Below, one piece after another: positions 11,798 through 64,000 of a stretch of 64,000 nucleotides of DNA. Within the stretch, counting starts at the first letter, position 1, and each line of letters opens with the position of its first letter. The notes under the pieces were generated by a model, which saw nothing but the letters and a program-made list of their open reading frames with translations, was not told the DNA's origin and did not search any database. A program made the translations under genes and the position numbers. The DNA is taken from positions 5,120,760 through 5,184,759 of the forward strand of contig CM082576.2 in the NCBI GenBank assembly GCA_040954595.2, in the 5' to 3' direction. The DNA comes from Balanoglossus misakiensis. Its lineage: Eukaryota; Animalia; Hemichordata.

Positions 11798-12231
11798 TAT
11801 TCTGTCTTTGGAGTTTCCAAAATTTCAGGATCCTGCTGCAGGTGGCCGCTTAACAGTGCAGTGAACAGCCCTCGACAATATCTGCGCTGAATCCCCAAGT
11901 GACGTGCGGACGGTCTCACTTAACACGTAAAGCGTTCACCGTTACCTTGGTTTCAACGCCGAGACAGGTGTATTGTTTGGCCTGGACTGCCTACTCGAGA
12001 CAGGATTATACCATTCTGCCGAGGGGGTAACGGGACCATGAAGATGGGACACGTGTACGCGGATATTAATACAAATCATGTATGATTGATTGATTTCGTG
12101 GCCCAAGAATCAAGACACCAGGTACGAGCCGGGATACGGGCGCGAAGTGCTACCGTAAATTAAGCCACTAAAACTGACGGAATATACACTACTAGTATAT
12201 ACCATGAGTTGTTGAATTAAGTATAGCTCAG

Positions 12232-12840
12232 TTCATGCATTTGTAACGTCTCATTTAGATTACTGTAATAGTCTTTTGTTTGGTATCCCGAAGGGACATC
12301 TAGCTCGACTTCAGTCTCTACAGAATGCTGCGGCGAGGCTAGTTACTCGTACGCGCAAGTCCGATCATATCACACCCATACTCAAAGATTTACACTGGCT
12401 ACCGGTAGAGGCCCGCATCAGTTTTAAAATTCTCTTGCTCACATTCAAATGTATCAGTGGTAAGGCACCCGCCTATTTGACTGATCTTTTACATTTATAT
12501 GTACCAGCTCGAGAACTGCGCTCTAGTGTTCAATTCTTTTTAACTCATCCTCATGGTAAATTTAACAAAACCTACGGACAGAGAGCTTTTTCAGTTTGTG
12601 CGCCCATTTTATGGAACAATTTACCCCTTGATATCAAAACCGCCAGAAGTGTCAATATTTTTAAGCGTAATTTGAAAACATACCTTTTTACTCGGTTTTA
12701 TGTGTAACGTGTTCGATTGTGTCCTTTTAACTATTTTTACCAGCCTTGTATTTTTTAATCTACTCTTTTAGCTATGTACAATGCGCTGAGACGTATGTGT
12801 AGCGCATTTTAAACAATTCTTAATAATAATAATAATAATA
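12232..12840 (+). mobile_element. 5'-truncated non-LTR retrotransposon (L2/CR1-group LINE 3' end)
   Basis: The ORF reads VHAFVTSHLDYCNSLLFG...LQSLQNAAARLV...DHITPILKDLHWLPV...GQRAFSVCAPILWNNLP...FKRNLKTYLF*, the typical ORF2 C-terminus. It is followed by a 3'UTR and a (TAA)n tail (~12821-12842). ATAGCTCAG flanks both sides (12223-12231, 12841-12849). Confidence 0.92.
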
Positions 12841-18900: not shown

Positions 18901-21422
18901 CTATAATTCCCAGCTCGCAAAGCTGTGGATTTCTAGATCCTTTCCAGGACCAGGAGCATTCTAAACATTTAAGAATCCCGGCTTAATTAGAGTTTCCCAT
19001 GCGGTGCTTACACTTGTTCCCTGGCAAAGGATGGTCTGTGCGATGTGACATTCCCTGCCTCCATGTCATTTTGTAACACTTTTCCCGGACCTTGGTCTTT
19101 CAAATGAACACGCACCCAATCGCCTCATGCTGACGTTGTGGCTCACACAAATGATTTCGCAGCTGTTGGAACTATTTTACTGATGAATCAATATTTGGTG
19201 CATGTCAGCTGTTTCTTTGTTGTATCCTAAACCGAGGAAATACAATTGATGAATTTAGAATTTGTTGTGACAGCTTGGAGACCAAAAATAAGGTCTATGG
19301 CCGGCCACGTCAGAAGCAAGATGATGTAAGAATCTAATGATTTGTGGCTCACACATTGGAACACTCATTTCACACAGATTATATCATAACTTGATGGCAG
19401 ATTTAAATTTTATCTCATATTTTCATATAAGTGAACAAGGTGATATCTAACAAAGTCATGTCCACAATTCCATCCTCAATTTTTTGTATGGTATGTATGG
19501 CATAGTAAGTACATTGTACTAGAGGGAAAAATACAAATTTTGCTGACATTAAATTATGATGATAAATTTCCATGGTACAATGTACCAGTAACACGTCAGC
19601 AGAGATCGCCTAGGATAGGCAATGCTTCTGAAACTAAATTATTATTCATATTAATTTGAAATGCCTGCAGCAAGGTTTTTGCTAGGATACAGCTTGATAC
19701 ATGAGCTATTATAAAGCAATTGCTTCCAGTCTATGATGATCATGTGAAGCACAGTTTCACTCTCACTGTACGCTTCTGGCAAGGACAGAAAAATCTAAAG
19801 TTCACAGAGGATTAGTGTTTTCCTTTTTGGCAACATTATTTAAACAACCACAGCTACATTCTTGTCAATACTAATTATTGGACTCTGGCTCCTTCCATAT
19901 GTACAGTACAGATAAGAATACAGTGTACAATTGGGTTGGCTCTGGGTAAACCCAAGACCAATCTGGTTGGCCCATTGTAGCACATCATTGGCACACCTTA
20001 TTAGAACACAATTGGATGTACTATGCAAACAATAGTGGAATTTATAACACTGGGCCAAGGCAACCTGTTGTTAGCCCAGAGTTGTGTTGTAATGTAAAAA
20101 TTGACTATTTAGTCCACGTTATAGTTGTCTTTGTATAAGAATTTTATACATGTGACGATTAACTCCATGTCTGTGCTTATCCAGGAATTGGCCATGGACA
20201 TTTGTACCAGATGATTAAGATGTGTGTGTATGGAGCTGAAGAAGAAAAATCAAGTCTTGAAGAAGGACCCAAAATTACCACACCAGAAACACCTCAGGTG
20301 AACATTTCAGACCATTAGTACCTAATCACATTTAGACAAAAAAGATCATTTTTATGCCAAAATAGTAAATTCCGCATTACCGAAGTTTCACCCATGTTTT
20401 CTGTTCACTTTCTCTTGCAGTCGAGATATAGGCAGGGTGTTATTCTGATGTGCTGCGTTGCCGGTCTCCAAGGCTCCTACTTGACGTGGGGGGTGCTTCA
20501 AGAACGCATCATGGCTCATGACTACGGAAGCGAAGGGGACTCGGGGAGGTTCAAGAACTCGCAGTTCTTGGTTTTCATGAACAGAATCTCGGCATTCATG
20601 GCCGCCGGAGTCATCATGATGTTACGGAAACAACCGAGGCACACGGCGCCCATGTACAAATACTCCTACTCCTCGCTCTCCAACATCCTCAGCAGTTGGT
20701 GCCAATACGAAGCTCTCAAGTACGTCAGCTTTCCCACGCAGGTCATCGCCAAGGCGTCCAAGATCATCCCCGTCATGCTGATGGGCAAGGTGGTGTCGCG
20801 CAAGTCTTACGAGTATTACGAGTACGTCACGGCCGTGCTTATTTCGGTCGGCGTGGCGATGTTCCTCCTGTCGCAGTCGTCGGAGGACGGCGGCGCACTC
20901 ACCACGGTGACCACGGTGTCGGGCGTCATCATCATGATCGGCTACATGACCTTCGACAGCTTCACCTCGAACTGGCAGGCGGAACTCTTCAAACGCCACA
21001 AGATGTCCAGCATCCAGATGATGTTCGGCGTCAACCTCTTCTCCTGCCTCTTCACCTGCGGCTCCTTACTGGAGCAGGGAGGTTTCTTTGAAGCCATGGG
21101 CTTCATGACCCGCTACAGCCTCTTCACCTTCCACGTGATGCTGCTGTCCCTGTGCTCGGCCACCGGCCAGCTGTTCATCTTCTACACGATCGGCGAATTC
21201 GGCGCCGTCATCTTCACCATCATCATGACGACGAGGCAGGCGCTGGCCATCCTCCTCTCCTGTATCATATACAGCCATCCGCTGACCATGATCGGCATCT
21301 TCGGGGTCTTCATCGTTTTCCTGGCCCTCTTCTTGAGGGTTTACGCCCACAACAAGTCGAAGAACAAAGTGAAGAAGCCCCCACCACCTTTGGACCCCGA
21401 GGCTAACACCAGCAAAGTGTAG
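15970..21422 (+). CDS. SLC35B2: PAPS transporter 1 (slalom ortholog, nucleotide-sugar transporter family)
   Basis: Exons 15970-15995, 18334-18572, 20185-20297, 20421-21422 = 1380 nt, 459 aa. Signal-peptide-like N-terminus. Motifs: [88 protein letters not shown]. Confidence 0.95.
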
Positions 21423-23367
21423 AGAGGGGTCCCACTTTTATGCAATAACAGTCCTCGGTGTCAGAGTTGTCAGCATTTGGTTGATGGTGGGGGTAGACCA
21501 CATTTCAGGGTTTAGATTCTCATTGAAAATGGGAATTCAACATCCTGGATATCTTTCCACTGGGGTTTTAATTGAACAGTTTGGTGCCAATTTTAGATTT
21601 CACATTTGTAAAGTTATTTCACGTTGTGGGGAAAACGAATTGGGTAATACTGTGAAATATGAATGTTGATGACTCTGACATCAGGCAACTGTGACATACA
21701 TCTTGTGTACAGGTTGTTATTTATTTATTTGTACATTCCTGTATAATCTTCCCTTTGTAAAGTACATGTACCATCATGGTTGACTGCCACACATGTAGTG
21801 TGGCGAGTTCCGTCAAAGAAAAATAAGAAGAAGAAACCAAGAGCCCCAGCCACTTTTATTTTATAGTATTTTAAAGTCAACAGTAGGAGAAACTTATTTT
21901 GTGGACAATTATTTCTAATACTTGGGTTTTTATCTGGTATCTGGTGACAGTCTCGGTGGAAAAAAAAGCACAAATTCCCACTGCCAAAGATGGCCTGCCT
22001 GCTGACTCTGAATGTAGGTGAAATAATTCTGTGACGTCCTGTTGTTTCCTTGGTTTTAGTTTATGTGTGCTTCCATGATGTCATTTTGGGTCAATACACA
22101 TCCAAACTCATTTTAAGTGGAGGATGGGAAGTGGATTTGAGGTCAAACATGGTGACATTTGTCTGCCACGCATTTGTGTGTTAAATTATAATTAAATGTA
22201 AATGCAGCAAGTGCAATAAACTTTTCTCTCTTTTTTTGGAACTGAGAAATGTTGTCATAACAAAATCTGCAGGTACAAAAACAATGCAGAGAAAAATACT
22301 CAAACTACATTTTTTGAGCACAGGAAGATCATTCTTGTTATTATGTGGAATGTCCGCGCTCTTCACTAGATGACAGCCTCCTATGTGTGAAATATTAAAA
22401 TAAATTGATACAAATTGAAATATCAAAAATTATTTATTATATTAATGTACAAGAAAAATTAAGGAATTGCAATGTAATGAAAGAATTAGAAATTTGGAAT
22501 AGCTGGGGTCAAGTGAAACTACATACAGTAGTATGTGTAGTTCTAGACAGGCATTCATTGTACTATGGTGCTCATGAGTGCAGCTGCATGTTTTTTTGTG
22601 GTCACAGAATAAGGCAACAGCACATCCATTTTTTCTGACTGGGGACTAGAAGCAGGGCTTAGGTCACAGTTGCAAAAATATTCATGATCATCTTCGTAAA
22701 ATCTCCCAGGTGGGAGAGAGAGGCACTAGTTTATTGGTTTTAACTGTTTTCTTTGAACTGTATTTCTTATTTATCAGCAATTATACTTATTGTCAACTTT
22801 TTTTTAGTACATGTATTAATTTCTTTTTGAGAGATTAAGTGCCTTTCTAGAGGTGTTCTGAGAAAGCACTTCATTTTTGTGCATGGTCTTTACTTTGTAT
22901 GTAAATAATATAGAGAGAACTCTGGAGAAAAATTGTGGCAGTAAAAATCATTGACTGAAATCCAGTCTTGGATACATGTTGGCTCTATACACAGATTCGT
23001 TCTTCAATTCCTTGTATGTGTGTGTGTGTGTTGTGCAAGCTGTGTCCAACGTCACTTAGAGCTTCTGGATACCATTTGATCATTCCTTGAGTTGGGAATG
23101 CTGTTTGATTTTCTGGAGACTATTCTGTGCTAGTGTCTGTCTGGTATCTTGATGTTGCAGTTCTATTCAGACTCTATTCCACCATACCTGACCATACATA
23201 AATGTTGGTTGCAAGATCCAGTCACATTTTCCCGGAATTACATTATTCACATATATTGACCAGCCATGAAAGAAACAGCTGTCCCCTCCCCTCCCCAATC
23301 AGATGCAATTAAACAGGCATACGCAATATTCCTGTGTTACCAGTTTATTACTATTCCCAACTACAAT

Positions 23368-26300
23368 TCATTCCATCAAGGAAGCACAAAGCCAAAGGTG
23401 GGGTAACTTCCACTGTTCGTCCACAGCTCCACCATCATGCACGGGAATATGCCATGTCAATCCGTCTGTCTGTGCAATGGTTTCATGAATAAACGGTTGC
23501 TGAAAAGAGTAAGGGAAACGTTACTAGTCTTGCACATATAGCTATGCAATGACCTGACCATGTGACAAGGTTAGTGATCTATCTGTGTGCTGCCTGAGCC
23601 AATATGACACATACTAATAATCCATAATGCAAAAAATATTAAATATTAATTCCTAAAAATTGACCAGCAGTTTCCATAAATCATGTCAGTTTGAAAGGTT
23701 GACAGTGATATGGACAAAATTATAGTTCCCTCACCTGAAACTGTGGAGGCTGGTACTTTTTCATTTTGACTGGCACGTACTGGCGACTTCTCTGCCATTT
23801 CAAGAAATATTTGAGAGTCTGTGGAGAAAGCAAGGCTCTGTGGTCTCTCATCATGTCCCTGCTGACATAGATTGCTCTCTTGCCACTGTGTAGAGTTGCG
23901 TACAACAGGAAGGGATCGTCTTGAGACCTGTCCAAACGAAAATCATCCAGTATACATGAATAATCAAATAACGCGAGTACCCGGTAATCCCGAGCATTCT
24001 CCCAGCAAATTACCTGAAAACCCCTGAAGGTTACAATGATCTGCCCTTTTCATGAACCCTATTTGCTAGCAAGAGTCTGGTTGAACCACAAAGGTCCTGG
24101 CCAATATTAATAATGAAAATGTGGTGGAAATAGTAGAAGCTACATTGTTGCTTTCCTGCATCAGTGCATCACCATGGAAACTGCAAATGTCGCTCTGACA
24201 GAATGCGGTCCAGCGAAGTATGAACTTACACATTATCTGCAAAGAAACAATCGGCAATGTCTTGAATCCAGCTCATGTTATATTTGTGCCATCTCTTGCT
24301 ATGCCGCAACATATGTCGCCTTCCGATCACCAGCACTCGCTTTCCCAAATCCTCGGCGAAGTACACCACCACCTGTCTCAGCTACATAAAAACAGAAAGC
24401 AGAGTGTCAATCATGATGTCATAACAAACCTGTTCAGGTCAAACACAGGTGGGACTGATGAACTGAACTTTGTAGGGGTGGTCAGCACCCAATGTGGCTG
24501 AGGGTGCAGCAAGGTGGAAAGACTTCACAGTTCAATGAAGTTTTAACTGGACTCTACATAGTCTGGCAACTTGGTCCAGAAAAGCCTCGTTGGACTGAAC
24601 AAATTCCCTTTGTGTTCCTATTCACATAAAATCATTGCAATATGATTGGGCTATATGTTTGCAAGATGCTTTGTATTGGCTGTGCATGCCTAAATGCATG
24701 CATGTGGACATCAAAATGATTTGCCACAAACAGCAGCATAGAAGTAGAGAATAACTGAGTCATAATACAGCAAACGTAAATAATGAGATATCTTGTACCA
24801 GACTTATTTGGTTCACAGCAGCATTTATTTCGCATATGTTTAAAAGGATAAGACACACAAAAAAGCTGACTACGGCCTCGGGAAATAGCATATGATTCTG
24901 GTAACTCACAGCCCCTCGGGTGTAATAAACGGCTGATATGGCCCTCATGGCCAGGCAATAGGTGTTCACTATAGACTGGTTTATTGAAGTGGTGTCCCAC
25001 TTCTCTGAGGATCACAGAATATGACACATTTTGCCCAAAAGTTTAGACATTTTAATCTTAACATGATTTCACACAATAAATTTAAAGTGCACTATTTCAA
25101 CGTTGTTTTTATTTTGACATCAGACTGGGGTATATTCACTTGTTCATTTGATGTAAAATATTCTATGTACAGCACAGTTTTACTTGCTATCATTCAAGAT
25201 GAACACATATTTCATCTAGCATTTACAATCACACAGATAGTTCAATTATCACCAAAATAGCATCTCTGTTCAGTGATTTTTCTGTGCAATGAAAACCTTT
25301 TTGCCCAGCACACCCCTAGTTTCTTGTAGAATGGTCTATCTCATGATGTGGAACAATTGGAACGTTCCACTCCTAAGGTAATAATTAATTGGCAGGGTAT
25401 TTCCAGTTAAAGATGTGTAAAACTTCCTGCTTGTCATTTGCTGCAGATCTTCTATTCCTGTCCCTTGTTTTGTTGTTGCAAGAATTCATTGTACGCCTTC
25501 TCCTGTTGTTCGTATTTCTTGGTCAGTTTCTTGATCTGGTTGTTGCTGAGTGGTTCTCCAGATGCATCATGGGTAGGAATTCCCTTCAAATCAACAGAGA
25601 GAATAACATCAAAGTTTGTCGTGCAGGAGATCAACTTTGTGACGTTTTGTTTTGACAGTAGAAGAAACATTTTGGGCATCAATATAAGCTATATTTTACA
25701 ATAGCAAGGTTCCTATACAAGAAACATTTCATTCATCAAATGTGTTACAAGGAGACAGGTTTGAGATTGGTCTGATTTTCAGTGGGCTAGATTTACAATA
25801 TAGCCTGTACACTCTGAACAAGAGAGATTTAATACTCACCTTTTCATCAAACTTGGAGTACTTGTCAGTGTCATTTCTGAATAAATCTTTTGGCGAGACA
25901 CTCTGCAGGGCTGCCTTGGCAACCGATTTCTCCTCTTCCTTTCTTCTCGCCTCATCTTTCTTCTGTTTCTTCTCATCAGATTGCTGAGATGCACAGAAAC
26001 ATGTTTGCATCATCAAAATTTCCGAATGATATCATGAATAATCAGAATTTTACTTCTCTTTCATATTTGCCTAAAAGCTTGGGTCAGTACGCTGCATTAT
26101 TGAAAGCACACATATGATCTGCCCGGCCTACCTGTTTTGTGAGCTCCTTCTCTCTTTGGAGCTGATCCTTGTCTGCAAGTTTAACAACTGTTTGTTGGCC
26201 TTCACTATCTTCAAGTCTAACACCCAAGTCAGGCAGGATCTCATCTCTGACCGTGTCACACAGTTCTAACAACTCCTTGTCTGTAGTGTGAAGAGGGAGA

Positions 26301-29300
26301 AGACACTCTTGTAAAATAAATGAGGTGACCGGATTATTTCCTTGAGATGATTTTTTTCTAATAAACTTAGAATGGAGTCCAGGACCATGCCTATTATACA
26401 CAATCGCCTTATTCATTATAACAAGACGTTGATAGAGGGTACACTTGAATATGGAATTGTGTGTCATGAAAGGGAAAGTGTACAAAAAATTAAATTAATT
26501 AAGAATATTGAAACGTAAACATACTTTGTTCCAGCATTGCTTTCTGTCTCACCGTGTCTCTGAAATCAGCAAATGCTTTGATGTAGGGCATCACTGTTTC
26601 TTCAAGCTGTGGTGACACGAAAATAAAATGTTGTTTATGATAAAACACAGACTGTATTTTAATATTTTATCATAGCTAAAACAAACCTGAGCATCCAATT
26701 TAATACTGAAATTTTCAGTAATTTCAGTGAACATGAACACTGATTGAAAGCCATTCATGTTGAACTCACATTGACACTTTGTGCTCCAGAAGTAACGGGA
26801 AAGCCTATTGGGTCTTCTCCTTCGATGGCACCAAATGTCTGGAAGAAAATCAATCAGAATGCTGCTTACATGTCAGAAACAATAGGTGACAAACACTGCT
26901 CATTAGATGCCCTTGTGTCATTGCGTCTTGCACATAGGCAAACGTGCAACAAACAGAATAATTGCCATGGTTAAATTATTTCAATGTTTAGAATCTGAAA
27001 TAATCAGTAGCATTGGTAAATGACAGTGGTTGCATGTATCTGGTTGACTGCATTTTCAATATGGTTGAACTGAGCTACTGAAACCGAGATAGATTTTTTC
27101 ACACTAGGAGATCATTGTCTTGTTCTCAACAAACTGTGTGGAGTGAACAATATTCTGACATACCTTGAGAATCTTTGTGATGTACTCAGCGATGTTTTGC
27201 AGGAGTCCGTTATTGGGACGTTCACCAGCTTTCTTCTTGTCCTGGATGTAGACGTTGCCGAGGGAGACCAGCTCCCTGATGTGGTCCAGTGCGGTCTTTG
27301 TGTCAATGGAGTCACACAGAGCCTTGTGAACATCAGCTTTCTTGGTTTGGAATCTTTGCGAGATAAAATTGACAGAGATGTAAAAAAAGATGTAAAACAA
27401 GGTCATGCACAAAAATACCAACACAACCTCTATCACCTTCCAGAAAGATTTTTTCCCCTAATAATAAATATTCAACTTCACGATACTCACTGTTGAGAGA
27501 GTTTTAGTTCTGCATCGTTCCATTTGATAAACTGATCGGTACCAGTGGGAGTATTTCTCAAGATATCCTTCACCGACAGGAAGAACTCCTACATGTGAAG
27601 CAGAGAAAAATAATCACTCAACACCACACAGATTACAAAGATGAATTCATCACTTGTTCTAGTTTCAAAATACATGAAGCAACATGTGGTATTTAGCTTG
27701 CCAATGTGAGATCTAGGACCATTTTGATTGCGAGATCCGGGACCATATACAGATGTCCAAATTATCCCCTGTTTTATATCCACCCATACTCAAAGGATCC
27801 GTACTTACATTGAGTGTCTTTTCCACACGCACAGCAACCTCCATGGTTTTATCCGAGTAGTCCAGGGTGTCTTTCCAGGAGTGCAGCAAGAATGCAAATC
27901 TGAGCTGCCTGGCTGTGTTCTTCTGCAGGGCTTCTTTGATTGTGACAAAGTTCTTCAGGGACTTGGACATCTTGCATCCTTGTATGGTCAGGTGTCCGGA
28001 GTGGAGGAAGTATCTCACCCAGTGGTCATTGCCAAAGTGAGCCTTGGGGGAAATACAGACAGTTATAGAGGTCAGAATGGTTGGTGGGGGGGGGGGGATA
28101 CATGAACAACTGGCAAGCGCCGCAATAGCTGAGTTGATAAGGTGTCTAGATAGAGTGGAAAAAACTGCAAAGATTGGCCATAACTAGATTATTATACTTT
28201 CATGCACATTCTCCCTTGTCAACTCACCTCTCCCTGTGCAAGTTCGTTGTCATGGTGAGGGAACTTGAGATCAACCCCACCAGTGTGGATATCCAGGGAC
28301 TCACCGAGGATAGAGCTTGCCATGACAGAACACTCAATATGCCAACCTGGACGACCCTAAAAAATAAGATTAGTAGGGAACAATGAAACTCACACTGAAA
28401 ATGCAAAATATTGAAATCATTTTTGTGTTGTAGATGTATAGCAGACTTGCAAATCCAATGGTGTGAGCTAAAATTTGCCACATGATGTCCTTGGTCTTGG
28501 CTCATAAGGATTGCTCACCTTAGTTTGTATGGGGATCAAAAACAACATGCCATTGAAAACAACACGATTAACCAAATCATCAAGGTGGAATGGTTAAATA
28601 AAGAAAACCCACATAGTTATCACCATCTTTAATTCATAAAAGACGTAAAGTTTGGGTATAGATAGAGACAAATAATTTACCTTTCCCCAGGGAGAGTCCC
28701 ATGCTGGTTCTCCCGGCTTGGACGCTTTCCACAGAGCAAAATCCACCTGGGACTTCTTTTCATCCAACCTGTCCTGGGAAATACTGAGATCCCCCTCCCC
28801 TTCATGCAGGGCTTTGTAATCACCCACGGCCTCGGGCACCAACTTGGCGTAGCTATGGTCGTCACTGCTGTCGAATGCTGACACTGAGAAATACACTGAA
28901 CCATTGGACTCGTAGCTGCAAGAGACAAAGGTAGAAACAATGATATTGTAATGCTGCTGATTCTCGGTTGCAGAACAGAACTTGTTTTGCCTATTTGATG
29001 CAATTATGTTGGTAAACAGACTGATTTCTACTACTTTTTCTCATCAATCAAATCTGTCATCTTTCGCCAATAAAATCTGTAATTGGTTAATGACTTTCTG
29101 TAATACACAAAAAATTCTGCTATCTGTGTAAACTTTACGATGAAAGATTCATCGCTCCTCCGCTGGGGGAGCCTTTGAACGATGGAGCTTTCAGTCCATA
29201 AACATAAGTATGATTAAATCAGATTTGACTTTACTGAAGAGACAAAAGTAACATGTAAATGACAATCTTACCCGAAACCATTATCCAATATCTTCTGCAC

Positions 29301-32300
29301 AAACACTATGATTTCTGGCATGTATTCACTAACCCTAGTCAAAGCATCAGCTGGTAAGACCTAAAAGGGAAGATAGTTGAAGTGTTGATTCCTGTGATGA
29401 TTGATAGTGTACTATGTCTCATGCACTTGTTGGAGTGCCCTTTATTGAGCCTCTAGCTTTCTATACTGGCATTCTTCCTGTATATAAAATATTTTGGATG
29501 TTTGCTTTCACTTTCCACATAATTTCTAGATGAAAGTTGAAATATCGCAATTTCCGATGTGATAAATAAAATTCTGACTTACGTTCAGTGCTGCCATGTC
29601 ACCATGGTAGTCAGCTTCCCAGTATTTGGGAAGTGATGAAAAAATGGAGTTGTCGGTGATTTCATGTCCATGATGCGTATCCAACCAGTCGGCCAGTGAG
29701 TCCTTGGCATCTTTGAGCAATACCTGAATGATTATGGTATATTTCGTGAAAAACTAGTCCACATCAATGTTTTTATTTGATGTCATTTTTTTCATTTTCT
29801 CTGATAAAAAAACAGATCAAGTTCACAAGAAAGTAATACTTATAACAGCGAGGACTGATTTCACAATGCCAATATTTAGAACCTGATTTTGCAAATCTTT
29901 TCTACTTAACAGAAAAAGATGCCTGTACCTTATCATCACAATGAACACCATACCTGCATTTTCTCCTTGATTAATTCTTGATTATCAGACCCAGTTTTCT
30001 CCAAATCATCAAAGGCAGCTGTTATTTTCTTGACAATGTTTGACAACATGGTCTTCTTGTCTGGGTCAGTTTCTGCCTCCAATTTGGTTTCAGTTGCCTG
30101 GTGTGAAAAAATCATGAATTCTTTTCTGAGTTTTATGCTTATGCACTACAGTTAAAAAATACATGAAGTGTAATTCCTCGTCAACAACACCTACATTCTC
30201 TTAGTTTGATTCACAATATACATGTACCATACAACAATATATAAAGAAATGAAAACATATTTTCTCCTACCTGAACAGCTTGTTTGACATCTTTCAAAAG
30301 TACATCTGCCGACTTGATTTTTTCAGTGTACTGTTCCATCAGATAGTTTTGACGTGCTCGTTTGATAATCTTGTCATCAATGTCAGTGATGTTCATGACA
30401 TACAGGATATCATAGTTGAAATAATCTTTCATCACTCGACGCAGAATATCAAGTGAAATATACGCTCTGAAATAAACAAATGCAGAATTTGAAATTACTT
30501 TCATGAAAGAAATATCGGTGATTCTGTGCTCCACACTGAGCTAAAATCAAACCTTATCAAGAAATTGAAACAGCCAGTGATTTGTAAAAACCTGGTTATG
30601 TTGAGCTCTCTACAGAAGTAATATCTGGTAAAATTGCATGCCAGCAATAATCATTGTAATAGTGTGATATTTTACCTTGCATGGCCCATGTGAGAGGCAT
30701 CGTAGACTGTCGGGCCACAACTATACCACAACACTTGTTTGCCATTCTGTGGGGTAAATGGCTCCTTGCGTCTTGTCAAACTGTTATAAACTAGCAGCCT
30801 GGGCTGCTCACTGCCCTCTGGTGGTTGCCATGGTGGCTGTGTCCTCTTCTTAACCTCTGCAATATGACAGTTGACCTTAAGTTGACCTTCAAACCGATTA
30901 GCTTCTTTTCAATAGTGACATGAGATAATGAATGCTGCTCCTCTTTGCGTGGTCAATAATTGTCTATCAGGCTGTTTTATCTCTTAAATCAGTTGAATGG
31001 GGCTTGTAGCATGCAAAAAACAGGTGGATGCTGTTTTTTCACTGGGTTTTTTGTTCACAAAAAGAGTGAACTCCCCCCCTTAAACTTAATGGTCTAACCC
31101 CGTTACTTTTTTCAATGGTTTGGCTGGATCTACATATTCTGGAAAGGGGAGACATGGCCGAAGAACACACTACGGTGATGTTGCGGAATGCAATTTTCAT
31201 ATATGGGACTTGGGTGGGATAATCTTTATCATGGGTACACCAACAAATTAAAGGAAAGTCCCTTCACACATGTAGAAGGGGACAGACAGACTATGAAGGC
31301 ATTTTAAAAATCTTGTCATAGTTATTTACAAGGAAAAATCTTTAGTTTCATTTTCAGTTTGTAGATATCTTGCATACTGTGGTACGTCAACTCCTTGCCG
31401 AAAATCGCCTGAATTACATTTCTTATGAAAATCAGAGTCACTGTACTGAAAATGAAACTGAAATCAGATATAAAAACAGACTGAGCTTAAATAAAAATGA
31501 AACTTCCAAAATGAGGGAAAACAACGTGAAACTGCCAAACAAGTTATCTCATGTATTGGTTTTACCAAAAATGGTCTGTACACATTTCTCTGGCAAATTG
31601 CAAGTAATTTGAAGAACCGAAAGAAATTTCACAGTCTTCCCCGACTTCAGTTTGAAAATGTGAAACTTTGGCAATGTTTGTCTAATGAATCTAAGAATGC
31701 AAGCCATTACATGGAAATCAGGATTCAATTGGAAATGACACAAATTATGATGCCCCAAAATTGAGCACATTGAAATTTTCGAATGACTTGTTACATTTTT
31801 GCTACATGTATATCCTTCCCAAATCGATAAAAAAAATTAAATCAAGATCGAGGACGTATTAAAAGAGCAAAATCAAAATCAGGCTGTTACCTTTGGTTGT
31901 CATCTCACAAAGCCAGTCAGTCCTTTGTCATATGAATTCAGATTCAATCAGGTGTTTGTGAGAATGACAACCAAAGGTAACAGCCATGATTTGATTTTGC
32001 TCTTTTCAATACAGTCAACTGCTACCTAGTTTATATATACTTTTTATAGTATTCGGTCTGCTCTCATTGGCTGCGTCCAATTTAGGAATGAATTGTATTT
32101 TGACCCCCGGACTCAACTTCAAACTACACATAACTACGTGTAGTTTCACTTTTGGTTCAACAAGGAAGTAAAAGATCTTCACCAAGTGTTATGAAATTAC
32201 AGGAGGGAAATCTTATTTCTTGTAATGTTTTCCGACTTAATTGTTCACACATGCATTTCAGCTTCTAAGTACGAAAATGACCATTCAAACAGATATCAGT

Positions 32301-34971
32301 CACTTATCTACATGTATGAAAAATAGGCAATTGAAATGTCTGCGTAACCACAGTCCCTGTGATAGTGGGACTGTGGTGTAACACAGTGCCATTCAATAAC
32401 TCTTCAAAGGAAAGGAAAAGAAACAAAATGACATCTTACCTTGAATTCCTGTCTTTGCGATTCTTCCCGCATCAAAAATGGACACGAAACAGTTTCAAAA
32501 CGGTGACAGATAATTACATCGGGTTGCTGATAAGAGCCTGCAGCTGTCAAAAACTGGCTGTGTTGCCTTGTCTAAAACAAATGTCTCAAACAAATCATCC
32601 CCTCCACGACAACCCTGAATTGGTACTTGTTTTTGCGTTTGCTTTATCAAGTTACTTGAGAAGGCATTTGTATAACATTTGCAAGCTATACTTTCATCTT
32701 GTATGTTTGATTTTTTTCTCTTTCGCTTTGATCAATAATGGTATATTTTGAGAGAACTTCATGACCCGCAGACCTTTGCATGCCTCTGCATACACACCAT
32801 TTTTTAATGAGTGGTGTGGCGCATTCTTTTCTGTGGCAGTACTTATAATAACAATTAAGTGCAGCAGGACAATGTAGTTGCATCACAGATGAAAATAACT
32901 TGGGTCAGTTTCTAAGTAGTGCGGTCCAGTTTCATTTTGCCAGCAACAACATGCAGTACATTTGTAATAAAGTATCGGGTTCACTGGGACAGGTATTTTT
33001 TCTTTCACTTTGTCATTGATGAATAATGGACCTTGTTGTGGAGGTTAAAAATGCCACACCCAGTCCATTGCAATTGGCCTGTTGGCCTACTGTTACCTGT
33101 TTGGTGACAGTAGGCAAAGAACTAAAACCTAACATTCATATATCGTCACAAAATAACACATCCACACTCACCTACTGACACATATAGGTACACACACTCA
33201 TGAATGAAGGGATGGATGGATGGATGGACAGACAGACAGAAAGACAGATGGATGGACTAACACACAGTGATAATACTGGCTCTCCAGTGTGCAAAATACC
33301 TTTAAGTTTGCTGTAATGGTTAAAACTTTACACATTTGAATTTTAATCCAAACACTTTGGCCAAACATGATCACTTTGAAATAAGGATAAAACAAAGTAC
33401 CTGCTCTGAGTTATTGACAAACGGATCAACGTGTGCCACATTTAGACCATCGATGACGACATCATAGGGTTCACTCTCATCAACAAACTGTATAAATGCT
33501 TCCAGCTCTTCTGGTGAGGTCTTCAGAAATATATCTTTACATTTTATCACCTGAAAGTACATTACAAGTATTACTGTTATTCACCTGAATAAGTCAACCT
33601 TATTTGTATGAATGATCATAAATTCTGTTTATGACTAATTACCTTTTCCATGACTTCATCATGAATCATTTCAAACTCTTCATCAGACAGCACCAACTTT
33701 TCCAATTTGGTGCCACAGGTATCGCACCTTCCATCTTCATCAATGCCAGTGTAACCAGCCCTCCACTTCTCATTAGATTTACTGTTGAGAAAATATCAAA
33801 TAACTTCAATTGTTTTTCAAAGTTCAGTATGGCTGCTAATATTATAAAATGTGGCAACAGCTTTGGCTGAGACACCTTCCAATGTATGAAGACCAGCATA
33901 ATCTCAACTTTTGAAACTAGCTTTTATTGAATTAAGCCAGTATGCCTGGCCTACTTACCTTTTAAACCATGCTATCAACTCATACCCAACCTGCTTGGGT
34001 GGATAAATTAATTCTCTTCTCCAGTGTTGAATCAGTTCATGAACCATGCGTTCACTCCTCTGAATAACATTCCCATCATCAGTATAACAGCTGAAACTCC
34101 TGATTACAGCCATCATGGCTGCTTCATCCATCGTTACATTTTCTCTGATCATCTCTACGAGTAGTTTCTCCCCAAGTTCAAGGTGTCCATGTTTGAGGAC
34201 AGTCACCAGGAGCTGACAGTAGTTCCTACTTGATGCTGCATTGAGTGCCTTTAACTGTTCAAAGAACGCGATGCTTTGCTTCCACGAATCAGTTTTGCAG
34301 AATCCATCGATGAGAACACCGAGTGTTGCCGCCGGCAGTGTCGGATGCATTTCTTTAAGTGTTTCGTAAGTCTTGAACATCTCATCAAAATGATCATTCA
34401 CAACACACAGAGACAGAAAATTGTGAAGAGCCCCCTCATCCACTCTGATGCCCTTTTCCCCCATGAAGTTCAGCATAGACTTGGCTTTCTTTATATGCCC
34501 CAAGCTGACAAATTTCCCCATCATGCCGACAAAATAGCGTGGATTTCCTGTCCACCTCTCCTGCCACTCTGTCACAGAGAGATACCCATCTGGCTCATCA
34601 TCGAAATTGACATAGTTCGGTTTCTTTGCAGATCTGGTGTTTACGTCATCTCTTTGTGGATTCAACACTGCTTTTGGAATAAGTCTGGGTTTTTTGTGAT
34701 GTCCACCAGCTTGCCACTTTCTACTGCTCCAGTTGAGCTGCCTTTTGTCATTCTCTTCAGACTTTCTTTGAACGTAATTTACATTCCCAACTTTCTTCTG
34801 AAAAATATCTGATGATGTAGAAACTGTTCTTTGCTGTGACCAGGACACTTGTTGTAAGAAACACAGAACTGGTGATACCTTGGCTATTCTACAATGTCCA
34901 ATTCTATATGGTACACTGTACTTCATTGGTTGCCATAAATGCAACAAATGTCTACCAAAGGTTGACATCAT
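23368..34971 (-). CDS. PRORP: protein-only RNase P catalytic subunit (MRPP3/KIAA0391): PPR + zinc-binding + NYN domains
   Basis: Coding exons 34971-33959, 33781-33643, 33550-33401, 24381-24230, 23927-23735, 23499-23368 = 1779 nt, 592 aa. Basic N-terminus, PPR-like helices, [65 protein letters not shown] at 23349-23344. A non-coding first exon has its donor at ~35197. Confidence 0.93.
25452..30856 (-). CDS. CARS1: cytoplasmic cysteinyl-tRNA synthetase, nested in PRORP intron; start exon uncertain (31903-31891 and/or 32472-32440)
   Basis: 15 in-frame exons: 30856-30676, 30466-30271, 30097-29954, 29723-29583, 29360-29272, 28915-28681, 28356-28228, 28042-27809, 27588-27491, 27353-27164, 26838-26770, 26606-26525, 26280-26132, 25983-25840, 25583-25452. 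Motifs: [63 protein letters not shown]. Confidence 0.97.
31856..32012. repeat. inverted repeat / hairpin (MITE-like)
   Basis: The left arm (31856-31911) and right arm (31955-32012) are near-perfect reverse complements with a few 1-nt indels, separated by a 43-nt loop. Confidence 0.88.
33209..33256 (+). repeat. compound (GATG)n/(GACA)n microsatellite
   Basis: GGATGGATGGATGGATGGACAGACAGACAGAAAGACAGATGGATGGA. Confidence 0.85.
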
Positions 34972-35197
34972 TTAAAACCTGGAAAACATATTAAAAAGCA
35001 GTTATTGATAACTTTGTCGGTTTTAAATTTTTGATCACAAATAATATGTCATGTGTAGTAGCAACCTTCAGTGTTATACATAGCTAGCCTAATAAAAGCA
35101 TATACTAGTGTATTAGTCCCATTATTTGAACTGAAAAATATACATTGTATGTGACTCTACGTCTTACTTAACATATTCAAAGGTAGCTGTATCTTAC

Positions 35198-35588
35198 CGT
35201 TATCAAACAACTTTAGTGGTAAACAACGATGCACTTTCCCTCTTCACGCGATCACGGTTTCGGATCAAAACGCACGTGTAAATTGTAAACAGTAAGCTGC
35301 AGACGACGGGGTCAACCATTCACCTTTTACCTTTGACCTCGATAGTCTGTCTTCTAGCATATGATTTGATTGGCCACTGTCATGGGAAGTCTGGCGAAAT
35401 GGCCAATCACAGAGTAGTTTTCAACATTCTTTTCCCATAGTTCCATGTGAAATTGTACCGGAAATAAGCGTTTCAAATTGCTTATTTTTTGTGTACAGCG
35501 GCTGTGTGTTTTGTAACTCCGTTCGCAATCGAATTTCGAGTTGACTTGAGAAAATTCGAAGTCATGCTGTGTTTAAATTAGAACGACG
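35198..35588. promoter_or_regulatory. bidirectional promoter PRORP/PPP2R3C
   Basis: Divergent genes. Oppositely oriented CCAAT boxes TGATTGGCCA (35367-35376) and TGGCCAATCA (35400-35409); ETS-like ACCGGAAAT at ~35457. Confidence 0.7.
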
Positions 35589-36178
35589 ATGGACTGGGTT
35601 CAAAAATTAAAGCGCTACAACGAAAGAAAAGAAGGAGGAAGAGGTATGTTTTCATCACAATTTTTCGCCATCATTCCATAGCATGATCAATCAAGTTGCC
35701 TACTTTTCGTACATTTTTAGATTGCCAAGGTTGTCAGCAACTATTTTTTTGCACGACTTTAGAGTATTAATCTTGCTATCCTAAAAGACGGGTACAGTAC
35801 TTTCTTTGACGTGGTCATTCTATATCTTCTGAATTATTTCTCAAGACAAAATAGCAAGATTTTAAATGTGATGGAACGTGTTGGTACTTGCTAATGAAGT
35901 AACGTCTCCCGGTCTCTCGGACATGTCGGGTCCGTACTCAGTGTACCGTGATTATGGACGATTTACATGTAATGTTTTCACCTTTCACTAACAAACACGG
36001 TCTGACTTGACAGGTAGGCCAACTGAGAGCGAGATCAGAACTGAAGAAACTGAAGAATTTAGCAAAATTTACAATGAATGTAAAGGACCAGTGAAGAGTA
36101 ATCATCAAAGTTATTCTTCAATCCCTAGATTCTACTACAAGGTGCGTTCACAGCTTGTTGATGATATTACCCAGATGG

Positions 36179-36217
<39 letters not shown>

Positions 36218-38952
36218 GTTTGAGTTAGTGCAACAACATAACACATGAATTAAAATATTATCAAGAATAGAGTGACTTGCTCCATTTAAGGTGAATATTG
36301 TCTGAAGCTTCAGTTCTTGTTTTATTCCCAGCTTCCTGCTGAAGATGAAGTTTTGTTGCAGAAACTGAGGGAGGAATCCAGAGCTGTTTTTCTGCAAAGA
36401 AGAAGCAGAGAATTACTTGATAATGATGAATTACAGGTACAAAAGTATTAATCAAATGCATATACTTCCTGATGTCAGTCAAATTTTGAAATACATGTAA
36501 GAAATATGCTGTATAAAATCAAAATTGAATTTTCTTTATAATGCTGCAATATCTTAGAACACATAAAATATCAAGCAGATTATGTTTTGATTAATTTATG
36601 ATGTTGTCTCAAATCTAGAATCTGTGGTTCTTGCTGGACAAGCACCACACTCCACCATTGGTTGGTGAGGATCAGATGATCAACTATGAAGACTTCCTAA
36701 AAGTTGCTGAGGAGGCAGGGCCAAAGTGCAAGTAGGTATTTGTACTGGAAATGTCTATAGGAAAAGTAAAAAGTGAAAATGAGAAATGAGGTTTTTTCTA
36801 CTTACTCTGTGAGAAATTTTTAACTATGTCATGCAAATGCTTATGATTGATTTTATTAAATTATTGATATGATAGAGTCACTCACACACTCTGTTTTCTT
36901 TTTTGCCAGGCCTTTCTTTACAGCCACTGTGTTCAGCAAACTGCTACAAATTGATCCCTATGGCCGGATTTCTATCATGCAGTTCTTCAACTATGTGATG
37001 AGGAAAGTGTGGCTTCACCAGACTAGAATAGGTCTCAGTCTCTATGACGTGGCAGGCCAGGGATACCTCAAGGAATCAGTAAGTCAACATATCCAACAAA
37101 GCCATTATTGTCGGGATTGTAAATTGGTTTACTGCAGAATGAGAGCCTTGGTTTTGGTTAACTGTGTTCATATTTACCATTCTTCTAACCTCTTTATGCT
37201 TTGTAGGACTTGGAGAATTACATTCTTGAGTTGATTCCCACACTTCCACAATTAGATGGACTGGAAAAATCCTTCTACTCATTTTATGTCTGTACAGCTG
37301 TTCGGAAGTTTTTCTTTTTCCTTGATCCCATGCGCACTGGTAAGAAATGTTTATTTTTATCGCTTAATTTTCTGTTATTTTCTGCATATTGTTTTGAAAC
37401 CTCCCAGTTCAAAACTTGAAATCATATCAGTTATTGTCAACATTACTTTTATTCATCACTCAACATTTATTTCTTCATTCAGGTAAAATCAAGATCCAAG
37501 ATATTTTAGCTTGTAGTTTCCTCGACGATTTGCTAGAATTACGAGATGAAGATTTACCAAAAGATGCACAGGATTCCAATTGGTTTTCAGCACCATCAGC
37601 ACTCAGGGTATATGGTAAGAATATCATTTCTTTTACTTGCCAAAGAATCAGCGACTACATTCTATTAATGACTTCAGTGGTACAAATCGGACATACACAC
37701 CAGTACTTGTGGCATTACTGCTGTCTGCAATTTATTTGTACAGCACAACAAGTGGAATGGGCCTGTTTTAGAGGTTTGCAGTGAAGTAGCAATATTTTGA
37801 TAAGTCCCTGTTTTGTTGTTGTGTGTAGGCCAGTACTTGAACTTAGACAAAGATCACAATGGAATGCTGAGTAAAGACGAACTGTCACGCTACGGCACTG
37901 GTACTTTGACGGATGTCTTTCTTGAACGGGTTTTCCAAGAATGTCTGACATATGATGGTGAAATGGTAAGTCTTTTTATTGAAGTAAAACCATGCAAAGT
38001 TATGGGTGTGTTCTCATCCATGGTGACAATAGGGAGGGGGGGGGGGGGGGGGGGGTTCCACAATATGCCCTCAGGTTTTATATACAACAAACAATGGGGT
38101 TTGGCATTTGGCCGATAGGGGGCGCTTTTTATCCGACTAAGTATGGTGTATAGACTTCAGCTTGTGTTTCTTGTGAATTCTCACTAAGCTTCCAATTTTC
38201 TGTGCAACACAGGATTACAAGACATATTTGGACTTTGTGTTGGCCCTTGAGAACCGCAAAGAAGCACAGGCATTGCAGTATGTCTTCAAGCTGTTGGATG
38301 TGCAGAGCCGTGGTTACTTGAATGTCTTTGCGCTCAATTACTTTTTCAGGGTGAGTTCTGTTGTTTTATGGAAAAGGAACATCTGGAATGAGCTTACTGA
38401 TTTTTTATATGCTTCATATTTTCAGCTATCTGGTATTTACCTCAAGAATTCAAGTTTAAAAAAATAGGAGAAATAGTGCATACTTTGTGAATTTAATTGA
38501 AGGATAATCATGAATGTCACTATTGTTGTCAACAGGCGATTCAAGAACAGATGAAAATGCATGGTCAGGAGCCAGTATCATTTGCAGATGTGAAGGATGA
38601 AATCTTTGACATGGTCAAACCGGCAGATCCATTGAAGATTACTCTCCAAGACTTGATAAATAGGTATGTTCTTGTATTGTTAGAGTTTTCTTTATCATGA
38701 TTACTGTTAGAGTTTTATGAAAAACCCAGGGGTCTTTGTACTCTGGATGTACAGGTACTCATTGAGTCAAGTAGTTGTCAATTTCTTATCTGTTGTCTTT
38801 TTGTTAAATGAACTTTTTTGTCTGTTGGCAGTGGTCAAGGAGAAACTGTAACCAGTATTCTCATCGACTTGAATGGATTCTGGACCTATGAAAACCGAGA
38901 AGTACTTGTTGCAGAAGCCAACTCCGAGGAACCTCAGGAGCAAGAAGTGTGA
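35589..38952 (+). CDS. PPP2R3C: protein phosphatase 2A regulatory subunit B'' gamma
   Basis: 11 exons: 35589-35643, 36014-36141, 36332-36436, 36619-36731, 36910-37078, 37207-37339, 37483-37614, 37829-37965, 38213-38350, 38536-38663, 38832-38952 = 1359 nt, 452 aa. Motifs: IPRFYYKLP, LREESRAVFLQRRSRELLDN, VWLHQTRIGLSLYDVAGQGYL, EF-hand DKDHNGMLSKDEL, DLNGFWTYENRE. Confidence 0.97.
36178..36214 (+). repeat. (GAT)n trinucleotide microsatellite
   Basis: ~12 GAT/TGA units in PPP2R3C intron 2. Confidence 0.95.
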
Positions 38953-50800: not shown

Positions 50801-53800
50801 ACAATGGGAAGTTACCAAGACATAGTGTTGTAGGCAAGGAAGTATGGCTGTGAATGGACGGAGTGCTGACGTAGATATGCTCTGTCACTTTACAGAGCAT
50901 TGTCTATTGTTGTCGTTTGTTTCATTTAGGAACAAGTTGTTTGTAGCTGAATGTGGGGAGGAAAGTGGAATGCGGTTATGGTGGTTTTGTTTTGTTTATG
51001 AAGGAAACTAAAACTTGATAGAGTTATACTTTGAGTGTTTTTTTCCTGATTGCTTTATTATCACGACGCAACTTGCTTTGTATTCAGAACATCCTGGATG
51101 AATACGTTCAATGAAAAGTTCTGTATGTCACTATGTGTGAGCCAATATCCAGTGCCTGTTATCTGTGTTTGTAGAAAATTCTTGTCATATCCTGTTTTCA
51201 TTTGCTGTACATGTTGTATAGCAATAATGTATATTTTTTATAAGACAATAAGGTGAATGTTCACTAAGTCACATACCCTCAATTTCTTGCCAGATTTTGT
51301 TCAAGTACTGTACCAACATAAGATCATTGTATACCAGTAACCTAATTTGTTCAACCACCAGTAGTACCTCACCCTTGACATATCCAAACCCTTGTGACAT
51401 GATAGCAACAAACTCTAGTATTCATAAGACAGTTTGTTATAAGTTACACCTGGCAGCCCTCAGAGCCATATCTTTTACATTGCATTACAGACAATAAACC
51501 ACAGAGCTGCAAGTTGTTCAATTATTGAACCAGCGTTGTTCTATTATTTATGCCGTCTCCATTTGTTTTGTCATTTGACAAAAACCTTTTGTAGTCTGGT
51601 GATTGCTGCCACCACGATTACACACACCCACAAGTGTTAAACACAGGTAAATTTCTTCACATGCAAATGTACATGTATATGTTGTCCATTTGATGGTACA
51701 TGTACGCTGTATATTCATTAACCACAGCGACCTTTACACTGAATATACCATAAAATGGCTTGTTGGTCGGCCTACTAATTGCTCACTCTTGCATTGTTCT
51801 TTTGTTTAAGAACACAATTAAATGTGTATGTATTGACACAGAAAAGCATTTTGCAGTATTATTGCAGTGCTCAAACCAGTTACAACTGGCACGATTGATT
51901 GAAGCAAATATATACATCTACATCCAGATTATTCAAATGTTAGGTTTTTTCAAATGTGTGTGCAAGTACTATATTGATCAATATTGGTCATTGTTGCATT
52001 GAATGTCATGACAGAAAAGTGATGGAAAATCAAATATTCTGTCTTTCTATCTTTACAGGGAAAAGACATTACTTGCCTGACGCCAAAATAAAAAATTACA
52101 TGTATCAGCTGATGAAGTCTGTTGATCACATGCATCGGTAAGTATTATTTTAATATAGCCTGCAAGTTTAATACTACTACATGTAAATTTACTGTTCACG
52201 GGTTGTTTTAATTTGTGCGACGGAAATACTTATATGATTACATGTTCGCAAATCTACCGTAATTGCATTGACAGCTGGCACTTAAGTATGAAATTTACAT
52301 ACATATTGTAGGATCAAAAATCAGTGCTGTTGCATTCACTTGGCTGTTGCCATGGCAACATCATGGTCAGGTTTATTGGAACACTGCAAACTCCTGAGAT
52401 TTAAAGTACCAACTTATCTGAAACACAGCAAAGGGGTTTGTGTTTGAAAACTGTAATTTGGTGTCAGGTACATGCCTGTGTTTTTCACTCAATCATCAAA
52501 TTCGAATTGCATCATCAGTTAGTGCCTGCCTGTCATTTACAATTTGATCAGAAGCATAAAGTGATAGCTTAAGTAAAATATTTCTGATTATTTATTATTA
52601 TCCTGTACAATCGCATGAAAAATTGCCTATACTTTGGGGTCACACAACTGTTTGAAATAATTCAAAGCCTCAAAATGGGAATATTTTTTGTAATGGTGAT
52701 TTCATAGCCTCATAAAAACCACAATCAAGTTGGCATTTCCATTTACTGGATGGAAAGTGCCTTTGGCTACTTAATCTGAAACGGATAACATTCCTTCAAA
52801 AATGCCCCTAGCAAAATTGTAATGAGAAAATAATTAATTAGTTTTTACTCTGTTTCCTCACAATAAATGAAATGTCTAATTAATAGCGGAATTTTTTTCC
52901 CCTCTAGGAATGGAATTTTCCATAGGGATGTTAAACCGGAAAATATTTTAATCAAAGTAAGTACATGTACCTGTTAGTTTTTTGAGTAAAATTGGCTATT
53001 TTCATGTTGCCCTGGTTTCTTCACAAATTTCGGCATGAGCTGTCAGGTTCAGATTTTTAGGATAAATTGACACAAACATTATATTGACCTTATGAAGGGT
53101 TGAGGGTCATTTATCCTGCTTAGGACATACTAAAGGTTGAGTTATGTGAGTTCTGTATTCCAATTTTTGTATTTCAGCTGGTACTTTTGCCAGAATTTAT
53201 CATCTATTACTATTAGCTTTACAGAAAATGGACATATCAGAAACATAAAATCTCACGCCAGTCAAAATGCTTATTTTATTCCTTCTCGTCTATCACAGGA
53301 TGATGTTCTGAAATTAGCAGATTTTGGTTCATGTAGGAGTGTGTATTCTAAACCGCCTTACACAGAGTACATATCCACGCGGTGGTACCGTGCTCCCGAG
53401 TGCCTTCTAACAGACGGCTACTATTCCTATAAAATGGACCTTTGGAGTGTAGGCTGTGTTATATTTGAAGTTATGAGGTGAGATATACAAACTTTCAAAA
53501 ACAAATTATATGTTCTGTCATCAGTACTTGAAATGATGCGTTTCTGTTGCCATTTGCTATATTTGTATTAATCATTCTTAAATTCTGTCTGCTGCAAACA
53601 CAATGCTGTTAATCAGTTTGCTATAAATATTGCCATCTGGATGCTCAGTTTTTAATAACATCTACAGAGTGTTTCTGATAGCCAATTTGTTTTTTTATAT
53701 CCACATCTTGGATTCATTCATTCTTTGTAATCTTTCCTGTGATATTTAACGGTTTCCTAATTCACACTTAATAGTTTGTCTCAGCCTCAGAGCTGTGTTT

Positions 53801-62200: not shown

Positions 62201-62223
62201 TCTTCTGTGGATTATAGGTGATC

Positions 62224-63955: not shown

Positions 63956-64000
63956 GTGAGTTTCATCGGCTAAACTATCTTCTGTATCAAATTAAATGAT

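Follow-up and report, generated by a model that had tools for sequence, protein, structure and literature searches.

How can a gene yield one continuous message when a second, intron-rich gene lies on the same strand between the two halves of its active site? The question is raised by a 64,000-nt stretch of the genome of the acorn worm Balanoglossus misakiensis (GenBank assembly GCA_040954595.2, contig CM082576.2, positions 5,120,760 to 5,184,759 of the forward strand; hereafter the window, in whose numbering all coordinates are given). There, PRORP, which encodes the nuclease of mitochondrial tRNA 5' processing, carries within its third intron a paralog of CARS1, the gene for cysteinyl-tRNA synthetase (CysRS). 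We are highly confident that this nesting is real. As to its expression, we propose, at a probability of roughly 60%, that the full PRORP mRNA is made in cis by splicing around CARS1 as a closed cassette, with a predicted 33401-24381 junction and a predicted order of splicing steps.

The PRORP gene and the intron that divides it

The PRORP coding sequence comprises six exons, three on either side of a 9,019-nt intron:

33959..34971, minus strand: PRORP coding exon 1, N-terminus and PPR domain (Pfam PPR_2, E=4e-08; best match, Ptychodera flava PRORP)
33643..33781, minus strand: PRORP exon 2, zinc ligands C357 and C360
33401..33550, minus strand: PRORP exon 3, first catalytic Asp (D418), terminating in a weak phase-0 donor
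24382..33400, minus strand: PRORP intron 3, 9,019 nt, GT-AG, phase 0, containing the nested CARS1 paralog
24230..24381, minus strand: PRORP exon 4, continuation of the NYN domain
23735..23927, minus strand: PRORP exon 5, D488, D489 and D509
23368..23499, minus strand: PRORP exon 6, H566, C587 and the stop; AATAAA at 23349

All five introns have GT-AG ends (177, 92, 9,019, 302 and 235 nt), and the model translates into 592 amino acids with a terminal stop only. BLASTP alignment to the full-length PRORP of P. flava (XP_070577153.1) gave 404/593 identities (68%, end to end) and no gap at the exon 3/exon 4 junction, across which the P. flava protein carries the same residues. Identity reaches 86% in exon 3 and 82, 88 and 83% in the successive exons downstream of the long intron. 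A search with exon 1 returned P. flava PRORP as the sole match among 452 candidates, and the protein of this species is closer than those of Glandiceps or Saccoglossus. The domain order is that of metazoan PRORP (MRPP3), a mitochondrial enzyme that acts on tRNA 5' ends together with TRMT10C/SDR5C1: exon 1 matches PPR, followed by the zinc/NYN family PF16953, which matches four of the five remaining exons. All eight catalytic and zinc-binding residues align with human PRORP (P0234), in which we take the aspartates to be D409, D478, D479 and D499 and the zinc ligands to be C348, C351, H557 and C578. Judging by the human gene, the host is presumably essential.

Intron 3 splits the active site, leaving three key residues upstream (C357, C360 and D418) and five downstream (D488, D489, D509, H566 and C587). 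Because catalytic aspartates and zinc ligands are divided in this way, neither half, judged by these residues, could function alone. This agrees with a preliminary description of the same DNA, which had held both halves to be needed for catalysis and whose quoted motifs were all recovered at their places on the minus strand.

It is very improbable that the insertion has simply broken PRORP, with a working copy residing elsewhere. A further genomic copy may exist, but both halves keep their frame and catalytic residues, and the downstream exons remain 82-88% identical to P. flava. Within the window, tblastn detected no second PRORP piece apart from one match at E=0.84, and only one P. flava PRORP occurs among the 120 matches listed of 245. 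Allelic variation was also inspected. Among the 40 differences listed of 428, which end at 27293 and cover the side of PRORP exons 4-6 and part of CARS1, 16 are coding. Five of the six in PRORP exons 4-5 are silent, which argues against a broken gene; in CARS1, eight of ten are silent.

No RNA data set was listed for PRORP exons 1-3, and sequencing run X3 has no coverage of the PRORP exons; neither observation bears on the expression of the host or on its predicted 33401-24381 junction. In P. flava, the joined protein is present as a RefSeq model. In the 5' region, a donor-like site at 35197 and an acceptor-like site at 34979 (minus strand) suggest a non-coding first PRORP exon, and a short upstream open reading frame begins at 35319.

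The nested CARS1 paralog

Within intron 3, the following elements were delineated:

25452..30856, minus strand: nested CARS1 paralog, 15 firm coding exons, stop at 25452
30856-30676, 30466-30271, 30097-29954, 29723-29583 and 29360-29272, minus strand: first five firm CARS1 exons
28915-28681, 28356-28228, 28042-27809, 27588-27491 and 27353-27164, minus strand: middle five firm CARS1 exons
26838-26770, 26606-26525, 26280-26132, 25983-25840 and 25583-25452, minus strand: last five firm CARS1 exons
24824..25113, minus strand: candidate CARS1 poly(A) signals, four A(A/T)TAAA hexamers at 25113, 25056, 24985 and 24829
24870..24975: high-copy repeat of about 105 bp between the CARS1 3' untranslated region and PRORP exon 4, with a bin depth of up to 46,710 versus about 100 and many loose ends

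The coding part and the poly(A) hexamers lie wholly within PRORP intron 3 and on the same strand, the CARS1 5' end being assumed to be internal as well; the whole locus is compact (11.6 kb). GT-AG exon models with open frames for both genes thus corroborate the same-strand nesting first proposed in the preliminary description. The 14 introns between firm CARS1 exons all have GT-AG ends and measure 137-356 nt (median about 220, sum 3,192 nt). The frame is open to the stop and includes HMGH (the HIGH motif), KMSKS and the zinc-ligand motifs, and Pfam tRNA-synt_1e matched all four exons scanned. The gene had been called whole and intact, which holds for its 15 exons and all catalytic motifs; its first coding exon is uncertain, however, and it is a paralog of canonical CARS1. 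A contig from run X3, labelled 'DNA?' yet carrying two spliced joints, connects 25839 to 25582, which is the predicted last CARS1 intron (one joint in one sample). Since the last two exons are joined in this contig, nested CARS1 is transcribed and spliced in the X3 sample. The ~105-bp repeat is present in a single copy in the window and sits among the CARS1 poly(A) hexamers.

The nested gene is 82% identical to P. flava XP_070577152.1 and 66-68% identical to canonical hemichordate CARS1. In a tree of nine rows, it formed a clade with the nested-type P. flava sequence (P0003; support 100/100) outside Saccoglossus, Glandiceps and the canonical P. flava copy (99/98). This tree excluded Artemia (long branch), a near-identical second P. 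flava copy and three Logan rows; the same topology was obtained when these were restored (87/87). Topology tests rejected trees with a younger origin, at p-AU (approximately unbiased test) values of 0.0035 for grouping with the canonical P. flava copy and 0.0057, the constrained groups having been chosen after inspection of the first tree. Placed in this way, the nested gene is a paralog, not an ortholog, of canonical hemichordate CARS1, and it is a CysRS of the cytosolic type. Its old age is tentative, since accelerated evolution of the paralog could shift its branch outward.

Because the paralog has kept at least 14 introns, we infer that it moved as DNA and not as a retrocopy. Direct repeats flanking CARS1 as insertion marks were absent among the 20 largest repeat families. 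Canonical CARS1 of P. flava is found on scaffolds of 63.0 and 37.3 Mb; these two copies (P0006 and P0123) are 99% identical on different large scaffolds, consistent with a recent duplication or a redundant haplotype. No nested-type CARS1 from Glandiceps or Saccoglossus occurs among the 120 matches listed of 783, where annotation could miss one. Nor did PF16953 appear on CARS1 homologues as a sign of fusion among the same 120 of 783, or PF01406 on PRORP homologues among the 120 listed of 245 (lengths 321-1024 only).

Comparison with relatives, which the preliminary description had suggested as a check, pointed to a shared arrangement in P. flava but not in Glandiceps or Saccoglossus. The RefSeq accessions of the P. 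flava orthologs of nested CARS1 and PRORP, XP_070577152.1 and XP_070577153.1, are consecutive, and each maps to a scaffold of 41,862,543 nt. By these accessions, the two genes are likely adjacent, and the arrangement is probably common to two ptychoderid-like species. In Glandiceps and Saccoglossus, annotated PRORP and CARS1 lie on different scaffolds (33.9 versus 23.8 Mb and 1.51 versus 0.74 Mb, respectively).

The P. flava data also render misassembly less likely, since its orthologs are consecutive on a scaffold of one length. We consider it highly unlikely that CARS1 merely neighbours PRORP, or lies elsewhere, and was misplaced into the intron. The 24870-24975 repeat and a microsatellite at 33195-33258 do lie near the two CARS1 borders, no listed contig spans the whole stretch, and runs X1 and X2 may be the assembly's own source. 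Against this, the window is free of N, and all 30 bins are covered in X1 and X2, with even depth except in the repeat (X2, 34-63 per bin). In addition, an X1 joint ending at GATC links 31849 to 35688 across PRORP exons 1-3 (one contig, and therefore weak). An inversion read from this joint was rejected: it ends at GATC, and X3 splices 35641-36012 in window order. Both long-range X1 joints, 31849/35688 and 27537/31127, end at GATC, suggesting a proximity-ligation library and not structural variants.

Proposed splicing of PRORP around CARS1

How the host message may be completed depends on the sites around the start of CARS1 and on the PRORP promoter:

35001..36000: likely bidirectional promoter of PRORP and a PP2A B''-type gene; CpG observed/expected ratio (o/e) 0.98-1.25 versus a window median of 0.46
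32431..32443, minus strand: strongest donor upstream of CARS1 exon 2, GT at 32439, 12.2 bits; candidate first-exon end
31861..32006, strand unassigned: hairpin of 146 nt, near-perfect, with 43-nt arms that are 91% complementary; -82.7 kcal/mol
31891..31903, minus strand: candidate CARS1 first coding exon (uncertain), ATG, 13 nt, phase 1, giving an N-terminal length equal to that of canonical copies

A small matrix, derived from 18 donors and 19 acceptors of this locus, served to score splice sites. The lowest donor score is that of PRORP intron 3 (2.7 bits; 18 others 2.8-13.7), and the acceptors of CARS1 exon 2 (the first firm exon) and PRORP exon 4 score 0.5 and 6.1 bits, respectively. Every CARS1 acceptor from exon 3 onward has its own donor 137-356 nt upstream. 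For the exon-2 acceptor, candidate donors lie 1.0 and 1.6 kb upstream, whereas the PRORP donor is 2.5 kb away; no donor follows the last CARS1 exon. Removal of the CARS1 introns first would leave an outer intron of 4,244-4,793 nt.

From these features we propose the following course. An old DNA-level duplication likely put a CARS1 copy into PRORP intron 3. RNA polymerase II (Pol II) would initiate at the CpG-rich PRORP promoter, and the weak exon-3 donor would wait unpaired while near donors claim each CARS1 acceptor. The cassette would be closed, its first exon being acceptor-less and its last donor-less. The outer intron would then shrink from 9.0 kb to about 4.2-4.8 kb, making 24381 the first free strong acceptor, and the CARS1 poly(A) signals would be ignored or outrun while the upstream donor is open. 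PRORP mRNA would arise in cis from one read-through transcript, the CARS1 cassette leaving with the outer intron, and CARS1 mRNA would come from its own internal, non-CpG promoter and use the same poly(A) signals. The nearest misjoin, of PRORP exon 3 to CARS1 exon 2, stays open for 21 codons before a stop, and nonsense-mediated decay would clear its product. The consequence would likely be a cost in PRORP yield, or interference where the paralog is active, and not a tRNA-sensing switch.

The preliminary description had required a PRORP mRNA to read through the CARS1 poly(A) sites and skip at least 15 strong exons, or else to be built by recursive or trans-splicing. A host transcript must indeed pass a same-strand, multi-exon gene with its poly(A) signals, but skipping 15 exons one by one is unneeded because the CARS1 acceptors have nearer donors of their own. 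To recursive (ratchet) splicing, by which intron 3 would be removed stepwise, we give next to no weight: a single YAG/GTRAG site occurs in the 9,019 nt, at 33171, yet it lies 230 nt from the donor, does not divide the intron and gives no help past CARS1. Looping of the intron by RNA pairing found no backing either, with 55, 60 and 78 of 100 dinucleotide shuffles scoring as high as the intron ends and the best duplex matched by 3 of 30.

Several observations speak against splicing around an independently transcribed cassette. The splice scores derive from a small matrix. Terminal-exon definition promotes the cleavage of mammalian transcripts at poly(A) sites that follow a spliced acceptor (PMC3737548), which runs counter to the proposed disregard of the CARS1 signals. 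At least 14 introns within a likely essential host are contrary to the trend in Drosophila (PMC3814207). Nesting in P. flava is suggested by consecutive accessions and a shared scaffold, and tandem neighbours would look alike; a canonical CARS1 elsewhere in B. misakiensis is likewise expected by analogy with P. flava. Where CARS1 begins is poorly defined: exon 2 must be joined to a phase-1 donor, the hairpin encloses the best ATG exon, and the frame that the strongest donor (32439) would create with exon 2 contains no ATG. Finally, there is no CpG peak upstream of CARS1 (maximum o/e 0.61 versus the window median of 0.46), which fits a tissue-restricted TATA promoter and equally a shared one.

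The last two observations also favour an arrangement with one promoter and two products, in which CARS1 mRNA would start at the PRORP promoter, share a non-coding first exon and replace the PRORP message through alternative splicing and polyadenylation, as at the C. elegans unc-17/cha-1 locus. A CpG peak marks other likely promoters of the window, the PRORP 5' region offers the donor-like site at 35197, and acceptor-like sites precede the 32439 donor. We nevertheless regard this arrangement as unlikely: three PRORP coding exons would need to be skipped, CCAAT-/TATA-like motifs are found upstream of CARS1 at ~32080-32030, and the intron ends show no pairing above shuffles. The hairpin, which overlaps the candidate ATG exon and lies just downstream of these motifs, reached the gathering score of no Rfam family, its only matches being generic hairpins of the miRNA type. 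An X1 contig is diverged over 31955-32052 and identical on either side, so that one hairpin arm may be allele-specific.

Quite unlikely, too, is discontinuous splicing, whereby the PRORP halves would be joined in trans, or across an RNA cut at the CARS1 poly(A) sites with exon 3 tethered to Pol II. Only 448-732 nt separate the four hexamers from the PRORP exon-4 acceptor downstream, and splicing across a cleaved intron is discussed as one model in PMC3890989. The halves, however, follow in order on a single strand and have normal GT-AG ends, pairing elements do not rise above shuffles, and no CpG peak precedes exon 4.

There is no support for the suggested physical coupling of mitochondrial tRNA processing to cysteine charging: nested CARS1 is a paralog of the cytosolic type, canonical CARS1 of P. 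flava lies elsewhere and no in-frame join includes HIGH. Ten of 15 possible joins of PRORP exon 3 to CARS1 exons are in the CARS1 frame, all without HIGH. From the annotated donors, no in-frame host N-terminus can be placed on a complete CARS1, as the HIGH exon requires phase 1 and the PRORP donors are in phases 2, 0 and 0.

Neighbouring genes and other same-strand nested genes

The surroundings of the locus are as follows:

35475-38950, plus strand: PP2A B''-type gene, multi-exon, head-to-head with PRORP; first intron spliced in X3 (35641-36012)
20319-21419, plus strand: UAA-family nucleotide-sugar transporter gene, which we take to be SLC35B2-like, converging on the PRORP 3' end; X3 covers 21500-22929
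53134-53478, plus strand: protein kinase exon, presumably MOK-like
62218-63996, plus strand: ARM-repeat gene with a possible TIR-like tail
12216-12704, plus strand: presumed C-terminal fragment of a reverse transcriptase like that of a long interspersed nuclear element (LINE)

The head-to-head gene showed weak matches to PP2A B'' chains (E=0.05-0.08) and no usable match in the ESM Atlas; we take it to be PPP2R3C-like. In human, PPP2R3C and KIAA0391/PRORP are neighbours according to a variant table (PMC6105103), and because human PRORP thus also adjoins PPP2R3C, the comparison suggests that PRORP stayed in place and CARS1 moved in.

Nested genes had been described as usually antisense. This is overstated, given that 29% of nested genes in Drosophila lie on the same strand as their host (PMC3814207), or 727 of 1,651 in another count (PMC3890989); the human genome holds 75 parallel versus 152 antiparallel pairs (PMC2330155), and a mammalian catalogue gives broadly similar same-strand shares (PMC11694760). 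What is rare is the number of exons. Of the same-strand nested genes of Drosophila, 72.5% have a single exon and the others a median of one intron; loss of the host is lethal less often (PMC3814207). Those with introns belong to the same class as nested CARS1, and nested structures in Drosophila mostly arise by duplication into an intron (PMC3814207). Far from this norm, the present locus combines at least 14 introns with a likely essential host.

The closest functional parallels are the Drosophila hosts xl6 and ytr, which ignore the poly(A) signals of nested nop5 and eIF6 (PMC3890989). In these pairs, both genes are expressed and the host reads through a nested poly(A) signal used by the nested transcript only; in a reporter, removal of the donor restored use of the nested signal (PMC3890989). 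In our locus, by contrast, no fewer than 15 exons make up the nested gene, which separates the halves of the host's active site.

Other systems are more distant. In C. elegans, the same-strand, multi-exon nesting of unc-17/cha-1 involves a shared first exon and complementary RNA elements, whereas complementary intron-end elements were not found here above shuffles. In plant sdh2/rps14, the nested protein takes the host's N-terminal targeting exon; an in-frame host N-terminal splice of this kind was not encountered here from the annotated donors. Mammalian hosts have much longer introns, and their nested units are often retrogenes or L1, whereas here an intron-rich duplicate occupies a region of 92-356-nt introns. 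Mammalian pairs with alternative polyadenylation of the host share the same orientation, and nested activity can truncate the host transcript (PMC11694760, PMC3192792). In nested splicing, or intrasplicing, inner segments leave before the outer intron (PMC4829307, bioRxiv 10.1101/159350); here, these segments would be the real introns of a second gene.

The locus is therefore best regarded as an extreme case of same-strand gene nesting arisen by duplication, not as a new mechanism, and by itself it implies neither new chemistry nor a coupling of tRNA processing and charging. Our literature search returned no paper on the PRORP/CARS1 locus and no earlier description of a CysRS paralog in acorn worms. 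Both gene names occur together in none of the 10 papers listed of 34, and 'nested genes' in none of the 10 hemichordate papers listed of 219. Large supplements of PMC11175523 and PMC11618098 could hold P. flava coordinates or expression; eight supplements of PMC11175523 contained no match for six gene terms.

A conserved either-or switch, in which one promoter yields RNase P or the CysRS paralog, or the PRORP halves are joined across cut or separate RNA, appears doubtful. Were it true, ptychoderid acorn worms would use expression of a synthetase paralog to adjust the maturation of their mitochondrial tRNAs. According to genome-wide work, intron-bearing same-strand nested genes are selected against, owing to mis-splicing of the host, and their hosts are less often essential. 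The locus is a counter-example of unusual size, with at least 15 exons in the active-site intron of a likely essential gene, apparently kept in two species with PRORP proteins 68% identical. It would thereby offer a natural test of how the order of donor-acceptor pairing and the silencing of intronic poly(A) signals let a host transcript pass a spliced gene.

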